From: Escherichia coli
Lineage (GTDB): Bacteria > Pseudomonadota > Gammaproteobacteria > Enterobacterales > Enterobacteriaceae
Direction: 5' to 3' (one strand)
NCBI RefSeq assembly: GCF_048403405.1
Contig: NZ_CP183135.1
DNA: 64,000 bases
Shown here: one piece after another, positions 57,901 to 64,000 of the stretch
How the letters are laid out: the number at the start of each line of letters is the position of its first letter
How positions within the stretch are numbered: position 1 is the stretch's first letter
Made by a program: the position numbers

Positions 57901-60900
57901 GTTAGACCGCCGGTCAGCCCTGCTGACACGGTTGCCAGCGTACTTATCGTCTGCTTCTGCTCTTCACTGAGGTCAGACAGCTTCACTCCCGGATACAGCA
58001 TTCCGATCGCTCTGGCTGCCAGCTCTCCTGTTGCTGCGCCTGCTGCACCAGCAGCAACATTATTACTCTGCATTGCTGCTACTGCACCGCCCAGAATGGC
58101 GTGAGCAATGGCCTTTACTGCCGGGTCTTTTTCTGTTGATTTCAGCAGGTATGCCAGTTCCGGAGCCGAAGCTCCCGCCAGTACTGCACCAACGTCACCA
58201 CCTGCCAGCTATGGCTGGAGATGGTGGATGTTACCGATAATCAAGAAGCCTTAGATATAAGGCAATGTTTTATCTTTCTTTCATACGAAAACCAGTGCTG
58301 CCATACTAGCCCTTTTCCTGTGACATCTAAGCGAGCTCATGTTTATCGGGAAGGGTGTTAAATCATTGTTAATCATACACAGGTAATTATGCAGCGGTTA
58401 TGCATAACTTCATTTCGAGCGTGTGATAACGCCAACACAACCACCAGAATTATAAAATAAAATCACAAAACCTGAGAACATATCACATTTTATCACATTA
58501 ATAATTTTTCTTTATGATTTCATAACTATTTACAGCCTTTTATTAAGCCAAAAAAAGTTAAATTGCAATTATTTCATAATTATTCACGCTACAGTTTTTT
58601 TACTTTTAAAATCATATAAATATATAATCACCTTAAAACAGCAAACTCCACAAAATAATAACAAATAGAGATATTTCCACCCAAATAATGACTATCTATT
58701 CATGAGCTGACATTATGAAATTAATCATTATTTAATGCAAGTAACACAAATTAAAACAAATACCTTAATATCCATTATTGTGTGAATCTCATCACAATAA
58801 TGTTTATTTTACCGCCTAGTATGAACCACGAAATCAATTGAAGTTAGCCGCCATGAAATTAAATACACAACATGGCGCATACCTTTTTATTCTAAAAAAA
58901 TTAAAGGAATAATTATGGAAAAACATTACGTCGGTTCTGAAATTGGTCAATTGCGTAGTGTTATGCTGCACCGCCCAAATTTAAGTCTGAAACGTTTGAC
59001 ACCATCGAATTGTCAGGAACTGCTTTTCGATGATGTACTCTCGGTTGAACGGGCAGGTGAAGAGCATGACATCTTCGCAAATACGCTGCGCGATCAGGGG
59101 GTGGAAGTCCTGCTGTTAACAGACCTCCTGACACAAACCCTTGATATTAAAGAAGCGAAAACTTGGTTACTGGAGACGCAAATTTCTGACTACCGCCTCG
59201 GACCTACCTTTGCGGGCGATGTGCGCAGCTGGCTGGCGGACATGCCGCACCGTGAACTGGCGCGAAGATTAAGCGGCGGATTAACTTACGGTGAAATTCC
59301 GGCTGCCATTAACAATATGGTGGTGGATACCCACACGTCTAATGACTTTATTATGAAGCCGCTACCGAATCATTTATTTACCCGCGATACCTCCTGCTGG
59401 ATTTATAACGGTGTTTCTATTAACCCGATGGCCAAACCAGCCCGTCAACGTGAAACCAATAACCTCCGGGCAATATATCGCTGGCACCCGGCATTTGCCG
59501 ACGGCGATTTTATTAAGTATTTCGGCGACGAAAATATTTATTACGACCACGCCACTTTGGAAGGTGGCGACGTATTAGTGATTGGTCGTGGGGCGGTATT
59601 GATCGGCATGTCTGAACGCACAACACCGCAGGGCGTGGAGTTCCTCGCCAACAGCCTGTTCAAACATCGTCAGGCCGAGCGAGTGATCGCCGTTGAGCTG
59701 CCAAAACACCGCTCCTGTATGCACCTTGACACCGTCATGACCCACATCGACGTTGACACTTTCTCCGTTTACCCGGAAGTGGTGCGCAAAGACGCCCAGT
59801 GCTGGACGCTCACTTCGAACGGACGCGATGGCCTACAACGGACCCAGGAAACCGACCTGTTGCACGCCATCGAGAAAGCACTCGGTATTGACCAGGTACG
59901 CTTGATCACCACCGGCGGCGACGCCTTTGAAGCCGAACGTGAGCAGTGGAACGACGCCAATAACGTTCTGACCATCCGCCCCGGTGTGGTGATTGGTTAC
60001 GAGCGCAACGTCTGGACTAACGAGAAATACGACAAAGCCGGCATCACCGTGCTGCCCATCCCGGGGGACGAATTGGGACGAGGCCGCGGCGGCGCACGCT
60101 GCATGAGCTGTCCGCTTGAACGCGACGGAATTTAAAGGAGCCATCATGGAACGAAAACCCACTTTGGTTGTGGCGTTGGGCGGCAACGCATTATTGAAGC
60201 GCGGCGAACCACTGGAAGCAGAAATCCAGCGCCAGAACATTGAGTTGGCCGCCCGTACCATCGCCGGGCTCACGGTGAATTGGCGCGTGGTGTTGGTTCA
60301 CGGCAACGGTCCACAGATCGGGCTGCTGGCGCTGCAGAACAGCGCCTACGACAAAGTGACCCCTTATCCACTGGACGTTCTTGGCGCCGAAAGCCAGGGG
60401 ATGATCGGCTACATGCTCCAGCAGGCGCTGAAAAACAGCCTGCCACAGCGTGAGGTGAGCGTCCTGCTTACTCAGGTGGAAGTGGACGCTACTGACCCGG
60501 CGTTCAGCAACCCGACCAAATATATCGGACCGGTGTACAACGAAGACCAGGCAAAAACACTGGCAGCAGAAAAAGGTTGGGGGTTTAAGGCCGACGGCAG
60601 CTACTTCCGTCGCGTGGTGCCATCTCCACAGCCGAAACGCATTGTCGAGAGCGATGCTATTACGGCACTGATCCAGCGCGACCATCTTGTTATCTGCAAC
60701 GGCGGCGGTGGTGTACCAGTTGTGGAAAAGGCTAACGGCTATCGCGGAATTGAGGCGGTGATCGACAAAGACCTCTCTGCTGCCCTGCTGGCATACCAGA
60801 TAGGGGCCGACGCACTACTGATTCTCACTGATGCCGACGCGGTTTACCTCGATTGGGGCAAACCGACCCAGCGTCCGCTAGCGCAGGTGACGCCAGAACT

Positions 60901-63900
60901 GCTCAGAGGCATGCAGTTTGACACCGGATCGATGGGGCCGAAAGTGGCCGCCTGCTGCAAGTTTGTTGAAGCTTGCAACGGTATTGCCGGGATCGGCGCT
61001 CTGGTCGACGGGGCTGAGATTTTGGCGGGCAATAAAGGCACATTGATTCGTAACTGAATCCCCCTTCACCTAACCCTCTCCTCAAAGGGGAGATGGCAGA
61101 GTGAGGGCATCAGACAGTTAAAATTTAAAAAGGATTTCCTAATGACCATCAATTTGAAAAAACGCAACTTCCTTAAACTGCTGGACTACACCCCGGCAGA
61201 GATCCAGTACCTGATCGATCTCGCGATCAAACTGAAAGCGGCCAAAAAAGCCGGACGAGAAAAACAGACCTTGGTTGGCAAAAACATTGCCCTGATTTTT
61301 GAAAAAACCTCCACCCGTACCCGCTGTGCTTTCGAAGTGGCTGCGTTCGACCAAGGGGCGCAGGTGACCTACCTCGGCCCAGGCGGATCGCAAATCGGCC
61401 ATAAAGAGTCAATGAAAGACACCGCCCGTGTGCTGGGCCGTATGTATGACGGCATCGAATACCGTGGTTACGGTCAGGCCATCGTTGAGGAGTTGGGCAA
61501 ATACGCGGGCGTACCGGTGTGGAACGGTCTGACCGACGAATTTCACCCAACCCAAATCCTCGCAGATTTGATGACCATGCTGGAACATTCCCCGGGCAAA
61601 AAACTGTCGGAACTGAGCTTTGCCTACCTTGGCGACGCACGCAACAACATGGGTAACTCCCTGATGGTGGGGGCTGCCAAAATGGGGATGGATATCCGTC
61701 TTGTAGCCCCAAAATCCTTCTGGCCGGATGTGGTGCTTGTTGAACAGTGCCGTTCCATCGCGGAAGAGACGGGCGCACGTATCACCCTGACCGATGACGT
61801 GGAAGAAGGCGTGTGGGGAACGGATTTCCTCTACACCGATGTTTGGGTCTCAATGGGTGAACCGAAAGAGGCGTGGACCGAACGCGTCAGCCTGATGAAG
61901 CCTTATCAAATCAACGCTGACGTGATGAACGCCACCGGCAACCCGAACGTCAAGTTCATGCACTGCCTGCCAGCCTTCCACAATGAGCACACCAAAGTGG
62001 GCCGAGAAATTGAGATGGCATACGGCCTGAAGGGACTGGAGGTGACGGAAGAGGTCTTCGAATCCCCTAACTCTATCGTCTTTGATGAAGCAGAAAACCG
62101 CATGCATACCATTAAAGCGGTCATGGTGGCGACACTCGGCGACTAATCACCACCCGGTGCGTCGTAGGGGGCACCGGGTCTCAGGAGAACATCATGGGTA
62201 AGTTCAAATTTCCCTCCGCATATACCATTCTCTTTTTTCTGATTGCCATCGTTGCCGTCCTGACGTGGATCATTCCAGCCGGGCAGTATCACATGGCAAT
62301 GAACGAAGCTCTCGGCAAGGAGGTTCCTGTTGCCGGCACCTATGCACACGTAGAGGCCAATCCGCAGGGACTGATTTCAGTGCTGATGGCCCCAATTGCC
62401 GGGTTGTATGATCCAGACTCCGGTCAGGCTAGGGCGATAGACGTTGCGCTGTTTATTCTGATCATCGGAGGATTCCTCGGGATCGTCACCAAAACCGGGG
62501 CCATTGACGCCGGAATCGAGCGCGTCACCACCCGACTACGTGGTCGCGAAGAGTGGATGATCCCGATCCTTATGGCGCTGTTTGCTGCTGGCGGTACAAT
62601 TTACGGCATGGCCGAAGAATCCCTGCCGTTTTATACCCTGCTGGTGCCGGTGATGTTGGCAGCACGCTTCGACCCTGTGGTAGCCGCCTCCACCGTGCTG
62701 CTCGGCGCCGGGATCGGCACGCTCGGCTCCACCATTAACCCTTTCGCGACGGTGATCGCCGCCAATGCAGCCGGGATCCCCTTCACCAACGGTATCACCT
62801 TGCGTGTGGTGGTGCTTGTCATCGGCTGGATAATCTGCGTGACATGGGTGATGCGCTATGCCCGGAAAGTTCGCAAGGAGCCGTCTCTCTCCATTATTGC
62901 GGATAAACAAGAGGAGAACCTCGCCCACTTCCTCGGCAATAAAAGCGAACAGGCTCTGGAGTTCACCCCGGTACGCAAAATTATTCTGGTGATTTTCGCC
63001 CTTACCTTCGCGGTCATGATCTACGGCGTGGCGGTGCTGGGTTGGTGGATGGCGGAGATCTCAACGGTATTTCTGGCCAGCGCAATTATCATCGGTCTGA
63101 TCGCCCGCATGAGCGAAGAGGAACTGACCTCTACCTTTATCAACGGCGCGCGAGATTTGCTGGGCGTTGCACTGATTATCGGTATCGCGCGCGGTATCGT
63201 AGTGATCATGGATAAAGGTATGATTACCCATACTATTTTGCACTACGCCGAGGGAATGGTTACTGGATTATCGACAGTAGCATTCATCAACGTGATGTAT
63301 TGGCTGGAAGTGGTGCTGTCGTTTCTTGTGCCTTCTTCGTCCGGTCTGGCCGTTCTGACGATGCCGATCATGGCACCTCTTGCCGACTTCGCTAACGTCA
63401 ACCGCGACCTGGTAGTTACGGCTTACCAGTCTGCGTCCGGTATCGTTAACCTGATCACTCCCACCTCTGCCGTTGTGATGGGCGGACTGGCTATCGCCCA
63501 CGTGCCTTACGTGCGATATCTGAAATGGGTTGCGCCGCTGCTTGGGATATTAACAGTGGTAATTATGGTGGCATTAAGTCTGGGGGCATTGTTGTAATTT
63601 GCCGGATGGCGCTGCCCCTATCCGGTCTACGGAATGGTGTGGTGTCACCGGTTATTTCGAGAACTGAATATAGGATTATGATGGATTACGAAGATTTCTC
63701 TCCCAAAGAGCAACTACAGCTAACGGTCTGCCAACGTCTGATTGCAGAAAAGAGCTATTTTTCCCAAGAGGAGCTTCGCCGCGACTTACAGGAGCGTGGT
63801 TTTGAGACAATCAGCCAGTCCACCGTTTCTCGTCTGCTCAATTTGTTAGGTGTCATAAAAATTCGAAATGCCAAAGGGCTAAAAGTCTATTCGCTGAATC

Positions 63901-64000
63901 CACAGTTGCGTCCGGCTCCTGATGCCGCGCGCACTGTGTCCGAAATGGTGGTGAGCGTTGAGCACAATAGAGAATTTATCCTTATCCATACCGTTGCTGG

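Follow-up and report, generated by a model that had tools for sequence, protein, structure and literature searches.

An arginine deiminase module on an IncF plasmid of Escherichia coli: gene content, candidate control region and probable route of capture

The arc operon and its plasmid

A 64,000-nucleotide stretch of Escherichia coli DNA (contig NZ_CP183135.1 of assembly GCF_048403405.1; hereafter the window) closes with a run of genes for the arginine deiminase (ADI) pathway, preceded by an AT-rich region and by the remains of a plasmid replicon. Five co-oriented genes, all on the + strand, follow one another in the order arcA, arcC, arcB, a YfcC/DcuC-family transporter gene and an ArgR-like gene, according to both the list of open reading frames (ORFs) and the PGAP annotation of an identical record. 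A first-pass annotation of the window had proposed this operon, and the reading frames, PGAP and the NCBIfam and Pfam matches all bear it out. The scores of ArcA, ArcC and the ornithine carbamoyltransferase (OTC) ArcB exceed the curated NCBIfam cut-offs throughout (Table 1). The transporter matches the Pfam DcuC family PF03606 over its full length (E = 5e-121) and scores 295 bits against the NCBIfam YfcC model, under the equivalog cut-off of 500. The last gene is cut by the end of the window at codon 107 of 159; its protein scores 108 bits against ArgR models, below the equivalog cut-off of 194, and is therefore taken as a divergent ArgR paralogue, 76.7% identical to the protein at the same position of the E. 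coli chromosomal ADI islet. All five reading frames of the module are intact.

Three of the assignments draw on gene context as well as on family membership. ArcB is 67% identical to E. coli ArgI, and OTC hidden Markov models do not separate the catabolic from the anabolic direction; the context, together with this level of identity, suggests that ArcB is a separate, catabolic OTC paralogue. The YfcC/DcuC-family protein is probably an arginine/ornithine exchanger of the ArcE rather than the ArcD type. The ArcE concept is set out in PMC5300872, and PMC2328253 names the Salmonella protein STM4464 an arginine-ornithine antiporter. The regulator, as an ArgR-family gene placed last in an enterobacterial arcA-arcC-arcB-transporter islet, would belong to the RosE/STM4463 type.

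The enzymology of the ADI pathway is established family biochemistry, with two NH3 released overall, and acid tolerance and anaerobic ATP are its generic benefits. Applied to this operon, the exchanger would bring arginine in and carry ornithine out, ArcA would convert arginine into citrulline and NH3, ArcB would cleave citrulline by phosphorolysis into ornithine and carbamoyl phosphate, and ArcC would turn carbamoyl phosphate into ATP, NH3 and CO2. We regard this gene-level account as highly probable.

The whole window is 99.99% identical by BLAST, with a few single-base gaps, to pCREC572-2 (NZ_CP183156.1), a circular 169-kb plasmid in which an F-type leading region and the full traM-traX transfer region are present. 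Downstream of the window, the plasmid record continues through IS66/IS1 remnants into a second, intact FII replicon, with no chromosomal sequence. The circular match and the FII replicon beyond the window uphold the first of two readings offered by the first-pass annotation, an F-like element carrying ADI cargo. The surroundings of the module were then searched for elsewhere with a 9-kb query spanning the truncated replication gene repA, a fragment of cdiA and the arc genes (repA'-cdiA'-arc), and the query is 100% identical in many independently assembled plasmids. Counting records that hold at least 80% of it in one place, the junction is present in 248 plasmids of PLSDB and, among complete E. 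coli genomes, in 296. A search with the arc module alone found 256 PLSDB plasmids (239 from Escherichia, 13 from Klebsiella and two from Shigella), of which 205 are predicted to be conjugative, and 253 of the 256 carry the module at 99% identity or more. The number of plasmids holding at least 80% of arc, 248, equals the number holding the junction query, as expected for one shared junction, and this points to a single capture event followed by spread.

On these grounds, and with a probability of about 0.9, positions 58206-64000 are the well-known ADI cargo module of E. coli IncF resistance plasmids. Such modules have already been described, counted and tested in mice, in ST131, ST167 and other high-risk E. 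coli clones. Their presence on IncF plasmids and their rise in CTX-M producers and ST131 are reported by Billard-Pomares 2019, as relayed in PMC7671891, PMC7055906 and bioRxiv 10.64898/2025.12.08.692488; PMC7055906 draws the pathway in the backbone region of pRCS57-like plasmids. PMC7193042 (Garcia-Fernandez 2020) describes an ADI cluster with an extra FII replicon (FII31) as an IS66-IS1 module on ST167 NDM-5 plasmids, the same setting as in the window. Compared with the published IncF arc operons (pTN48/pRCS57 type, and the F36:F31:A4:B1 NDM-5 plasmids pNDM-5-IT and p100_NDM-5), the genes, their order and the plasmid family are the same; we see no substantial difference, and the window holds one more copy. 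What weighs against this assignment is that a source in an autonomous plasmid cannot be proved from 64 kb alone.

Table 1. Features of the arc module, its upstream region and the adjoining plasmid DNA, in window coordinates
Feature	Position	Strand	Evidence or remark
IS1 copy split by an IS66-family element	52215-55628		IS66-family insert at 52359-54974; PGAP
IS1 fragment, left edge of the IS1/IS66-bounded mosaic holding the vestigial replicon and the arc module	55012-55628	-	PGAP of identical record
hok/sok toxin-antitoxin	56009-56304 (sok model 56009-56165, hok 56155-56304)	+	Rfam RF01794, 93.3 bits; annotation
Vestigial IncFII replicon	56588-57596	+	annotation, Rfam, alignment to intact repA
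copB/repA2	56588-56845	+	annotation
CopA antisense RNA	56973-57063	-	Rfam CopA, 102.8 bits
tap	57081-57155	+	annotation
cdiA C-terminal fragment (VENN pre-toxin domain), frameshifted, 590 bp	57594-58184	-	annotation
AT-rich arcA upstream region, 709 bp	58206-58914	+	native yjgK-arcA divergent intergenic region, kept almost whole
yjgK-like gene 5' remnant, about 11 codons, ATG changed to TTG	58212-58244	-	alignment A3 with three Enterobacter loci; in native loci this gene lies divergently next to arcA
ARG-box-like site TTCATAATTATTCA, 13/14 against TGMATWWWWATKCA	58573-58586	+	exact position; consensus match
ARG-box-like site TGACTATCTATTCA, 12/14	58689-58702	+	alignment A1
Decayed second TGA-N6-TCA element	58733-58744	+	alignment A1; 50 bp upstream of the CRP-type site
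CRP-type site TGTGAATCTCATCACA, perfect TGTGA-N6-TCACA	58781-58796	+	exact match; core invariant
Putative -10 hexamer TAGTAT (conserved TAnTAT)	58817-58822	+	invariant and near-invariant columns, alignment A1
Leader stem-loop CGCCATG-N15-CATGGCG	58850-58877	+	conserved with compensatory changes
arcA, arginine deiminase, 406 aa	58915-60135	+	NCBIfam NF002381 609 bits (cut-off 414), TIGR01078 532 (489)
arcC, carbamate kinase, 303 aa	60146-61057	+	NCBIfam NF009008 502 bits (361), TIGR00746 384 (358)
arcB (annotated argF), ornithine carbamoyltransferase, 334 aa	61142-62146	+	NCBIfam NF003286 552 bits (515)
YfcC/DcuC-family membrane protein, 467 aa	62194-63597	+	Pfam PF03606; NCBIfam YfcC
ArgR-family paralogue, predicted RosE/STM4463 type, 159 aa in full	63678-64157 in plasmid record; window holds to 64000	+	PGAP, NCBIfam

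The region upstream of arcA

The AT-rich DNA before arcA, put at about 700 bp in the first-pass annotation, measures 709 bp with a GC content of 0.305; the arc genes have 0.53-0.58 and the window as a whole 0.523. The perfect TGTGA-N6-TCACA site stands exactly where that annotation had placed it, and a core of this quality arose in none of 500 dinucleotide shuffles of the region. Its GTGA-N6-TCAC core is invariant in 21 aligned enterobacterial arcA upstream regions (alignment A1). When 81 related loci were scanned, the core was found 122-134 bp before the arcA ATG in 24, and in 23 of the 26 loci whose ArcA identity is at least 78% (chance expectation, 0.004 per locus); it is absent from the Aeromonas and Vibrio loci of the same scan. 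The base before TGA distinguishes the half-sites of CRP (G) from those of FNR (T), and in all 24 loci carrying the core it is an invariant G. A conserved TAnTAT lies 28.5 bp downstream of the centre of the site. From this spacing we infer that the CRP-type site sits at about -41.5 and that arcA transcription starts near 58830, which is class II CRP geometry. Transcription would thus run from a class II promoter, and the GTGA-N6-TCAC site would most likely be bound by cAMP-CRP, putting the operon under catabolite control.

Arginine-dependent control would be added at ARG-like boxes farther upstream, by the RosE/STM4463-type ArgR paralogue of the cluster and/or the ArgR of the host. The first-pass annotation was right about the position of such a site at 58573, but what it had called a half-site is a full, imperfect ARG box; the Enterobacter sequence aligned to it reads TGCATAGCCATTCT, and the box is conserved among the Enterobacter relatives. 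In the box at 58689, the G, T, A and AT-CA positions are invariant in 21 enterobacterial loci, and its centre falls at about -134 relative to the proposed start. Altogether, the upstream region holds four ARG-like sites scoring at least 12/14 (58573, 58617, 58689 and 58854), where 0.86 would be expected (p about 0.002). The site at 58617-58630 (12/14) has no conservation in Enterobacter and was set aside as probably due to chance, while that at 58854-58867 overlaps the leader hairpin and is conserved in its left half only, which makes it ambiguous. None of the four sites has a partner in the 21-bp register of the tandem E. coli operators (a pair of 18-bp boxes 3 bp apart); single ARG boxes are known for activating ArgR proteins elsewhere (PMC11172107). 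Control by the paralogue is also supported by a 2012 study (Choi 2012); the paralogue is reported to activate.

Taken together, we consider this promoter model moderately likely. Several observations weigh against it. Most relatives have CGTGA in place of TGTGA, and the CRP assignment derives from consensus and geometry only. The ARG-like boxes each stand alone, match imperfectly and fall in AT-rich sequence, in which such matches come more easily. PMC2328253 calls RosE a repressor of std fimbriae, acting at the std operon.

A consensus scan of 57500-64000 for promoters and terminators was uninformative, its counts being no higher than those of shuffled sequence.

An alternative, which we think unlikely, is that the GTGA-N6-TCAC site does not serve as a CRP activator site at all, being bound instead by another regulator (FNR or another member of the CRP/FNR family, with anaerobic induction) or acting as an operator downstream of a promoter farther upstream. 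ANR controls arcDABC of Pseudomonas, with anaerobic induction. A second TGA-N6-TCA element with FNR-like flanks (CTGAT-N4-ATCAT in its Enterobacter version) stands 50 bp upstream and, if this were the element at -41.5, the GTGA site would fall at about +9. Further ADI operons under anaerobic regulators of the Crp/Fnr family appear in the reference list of PMC11172107. Against this, the G before TGA never varies in the 24 loci, and TAnTAT lies at class II distance from the GTGA site and not from the upstream element. The upstream element, moreover, has decayed stepwise. It is whole in 20 other loci (TGA...TCA), half lost from the chromosomal-island alleles (TGA...TAA) and fully lost from the plasmid allele (TAA...TAA); yet the plasmid allele is phenotypically active according to the literature summarised in PMC7671891. 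A simple FNR/ANR-type model was also considered and not adopted, as the consensus scan of the arcA intergenic region found no FNR-like site of at least 8/10.

Between the promoter model and the start codon lies a leader stem-loop. Compensatory changes occur at all six of its pairs across 21 enterobacterial loci, 88.9% of the alignment cells are paired (a share that falls to 25-44% once the partner columns are shifted) and the covariation score was reached by none of 500 shuffles. At a permissive threshold, Rfam gave no match in the arc upstream region, its only hits being CopA and sok of the vestigial replicon. A stretch 3' of the stem-loop, TTTATTCT, can pair with the Shine-Dalgarno sequence AGGAATAA (58887-58912). 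The stem-loop could act as a control element in the RNA or be a palindrome at the DNA level.

The plasmid allele also differs from the two chromosomal-island alleles (L002 and L003) in a way that is concentrated upstream. Twelve fixed differences fall in the 709-bp upstream region, against seven synonymous and four non-synonymous differences in 5022 bp of coding sequence; upstream substitutions are 2.9-fold over the rate at synonymous sites (Fisher p = 0.03). Comparison with outgroups places most of the upstream differences on the plasmid side, and two of the derived plasmid changes, 58574 G>T and 58734 G>A, affect bases that are invariant elsewhere. This excess is suggestive of altered regulation and too weak to claim selection.

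Two further observations concern other motifs. A block at 58382-58408, GGTAATTATGCAGCGGTTATGCATAAC, is almost invariant, with 24 of 27 positions the same in the window and three Enterobacter loci; it includes a perfect palindrome, TTATGCATAA, and, being about 140 bp away from where the truncated yjgK-like gene starts, may be an orphaned control site of that gene. Another perfect TGTGA-N6-TCACA, TGTGATTAATTTCACA, occurs at 52062-52077, in an AT-rich stretch between a finO-distal small ORF and an IS1 fragment.

Junction, origin and spread of the module

The first-pass annotation described the operon as directly abutting the plasmid backbone. The plasmid part of this description stands, whereas the working backbone is not what the module abuts: immediately upstream lies the 590-bp cdiA fragment and, before it, the repA of a vestigial FII replicon within an IS1/IS66 mosaic. 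In an alignment to the intact repA of the same plasmid, homology ends after nucleotide 449 (149 of 285 codons). This replicon keeps sok/hok, copB, the CopA RNA and tap intact, but its repA breaks off at codon 149 and it has no origin; CopA and CopB could nonetheless act in trans on the working FII replicon of the plasmid outside the window. Comparison with L002 places the repA'/cdiA' breakpoint at 57594-57596, with a 3-nt microhomology (GTT). No insertion sequence (IS) is present at this joint, which therefore looks like illegitimate recombination. The cdiA fragment has 92-94% identity to the cdiA of many E. coli chromosomes and is the scar of the chromosomal contact-dependent-inhibition (CDI) island that gave the module. 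Homology to the arc loci of other genera (Enterobacter-like DNA) starts at about 58206-58212 by blastn boundaries, and at the other end the plasmid copy stops about 40-60 bp past the regulator gene, at an IS66 fragment.

An ADI islet is native to many E. coli chromosomes, where it lies between argI/yjgK and pyrLBI in the order arcA-arcC-arcB-yfcC-argR-like. The plasmid module is a different copy, with about 75% DNA identity and 77-91% protein identity to this islet (ArcA, 90.9%). In a search of one genome per GTDB species, the closest relatives are Enterobacter and Kosakonia loci. The best of them, E. cloacae DSM 26481, is 84.5% identical over 58206-64000 at the DNA level, with 97% for ArcA, 94.6% for ArcB, 93.6% for YfcC and 92.5% for ArgR. 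At 84.5%, no donor species can be named, which counts against the account of origin; the true donor is unsampled among the GTDB representatives searched.

Much closer copies lie in chromosomal islands of E. coli, where L002 and L003 are 99.5% and 99.2% identical to the module and the island version is present in 52 complete genomes. In the chromosomes of APEC 102026 and GmF052, the module sits within a CDI locus, between a C-terminal piece of cdiA and cdiB. The island copies retain more of cdiA, cdiB and, after the regulator gene, a remnant of the pyrL leader (L002 18637-19353; L003 18402-18784). Because of this pyrBI leader-peptide remnant, the donor locus is placed at the native argI-arc-pyrLBI position, and because the plasmid segment is a subset of the island segment, the path runs from foreign islet to E. 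coli CDI island to plasmid. By this path, an Enterobacter-like copy of the argI/yjgK-arc-pyrLBI islet was inserted into the cdiA of a chromosomal island in E. coli. Illegitimate recombination then joined a segment of that island, reaching from within cdiA to shortly beyond the regulator gene, to a truncated FII repA, and this single junction has spread with IS1/IS66-bounded mosaics on F plasmids.

Surroundings made up of a dead replicon, a cdiA scar and pieces of IS elements could also suit a passive hitch-hiker with no selected function, and a cost in gut colonisation is reported for the plasmid operon in PMC7671891. We find this improbable, given that all five frames are intact, that seven synonymous and four non-synonymous differences over 5022 bp fit purifying selection, that 253 of 256 plasmids hold the module with 99% identity or better, and that an advantage in urinary-tract infection has been published (PMC7671891).

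Still less probable is the second reading of the first-pass annotation, in which the window comes from an F-like element integrated in the chromosome and 57594-58210 is, or lies near, the plasmid-chromosome junction. It is true that both the arc DNA and the cdiA scar ultimately derive from a chromosome, and that one complete chromosome, that of E. coli UK_Dog_Liverpool (NZ_CP031653.1, 160874-209874), has the identical repA'-cdiA'-arc block within an integrated F-plasmid piece, which shows that integration occurs. That piece carries blaNDM-5 and a tra deletion (traK joined to traI) and starts at an IS150 beside glyS, so that plasmid and chromosome meet at glyS/IS150, 20 kb away, and not at the arc junction. 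In contrast, traM-traX is complete in the window, which matches circular plasmids over its full length. The DNA past argR consists of IS66/IS1 and the second FII replicon in pCREC572-2, and of IS66, IS26 and an integron in UK_Dog_Liverpool, with no chromosomal genes in either, and the junction is common to 248 plasmid records. The sharp shift in content and GC at 57594-58210, with IS elements close by, might alternatively be put down to an assembly chimera, for which there is practically no chance, the same junction being base-identical in hundreds of complete plasmids that were sequenced independently and come from several continents, hosts and species.

Two other features of the plasmid, both from the annotation of a near-identical plasmid, lie away from the module: at about 9400-12100, the ssb region within the F leading region is broken up by a group II intron with an ltrA reverse transcriptase/maturase, and an IS150 adjoins hok/mok at about 14600-16000.

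Related systems and meaning

Beyond the IncF operons, the module has a counterpart in the 5-kb ADI islet with RosE/STM4463 described for Salmonella (STM4467-STM4463) and uropathogenic E. coli in PMC2328253, which has the same gene order, arcA-arcC-arcB-transporter-argR-like. The E. coli islet (L004) shares the CRP-type site, an ARG-like box and the leader hairpin with the window. The module in the window differs from the native islet in that its flanks are gone (11 yjgK codons are left and pyrL is lost), it is mobile with a plasmid and the upstream TGA-N6-TCA element has decayed. The Enterobacter/Kosakonia arc loci, the nearest found (84.5% DNA and 92-97% protein identity), can be aligned with it across the whole intergenic region.

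Two other systems offer parallels in organisation. The arc cluster of ACME in Staphylococcus aureus USA300 is likewise a second ADI system, acquired horizontally and carried on a mobile element by an epidemic clone; that element is an unrelated, SCC-like one in a Gram-positive host, with an ArcD-type antiporter and ArcR/ArgR regulators. The arcDABC promoter of Pseudomonas aeruginosa, with ANR at -41.5 and ArgR upstream, resembles the layout proposed here, but the half-sites in the window are of the CRP type (GTGA) and not of the FNR/ANR type (TTGA), the transporter is of the probable ArcE type and lies downstream, and the regulator is part of the cluster.

What the present analysis adds to the known IncF module is its exact boundaries, a path of provenance in which a single illegitimate join to a dead FII replicon was followed by spread to more than 250 sequenced plasmids, and a candidate regulatory model that combines a class II CRP site, boxes for a RosE-type ArgR and a leader hairpin. 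The regulatory model is relevant only to when the plasmid operon switches on in urine or gut. A wider and rather doubtful proposal, drawn from the same alignments, is that enterobacterial arcA genes share a previously undescribed layout, in which a class II CRP-type site is combined with an ARG-like box farther upstream and with a covarying leader stem-loop that precedes a stretch able to sequester the Shine-Dalgarno sequence, and that the plasmid allele is a derived, partly stripped version of it, so that the operon may be expressed differently than in its chromosomal homes. In mice, the plasmid ADI operon is advantageous in urinary-tract infection and costly for gut colonisation, as found by Billard-Pomares 2019 and relayed in PMC7671891. 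If the proposal were true, different arc expression on IncF plasmids could underlie this published contrast between urinary-tract advantage and gut cost.

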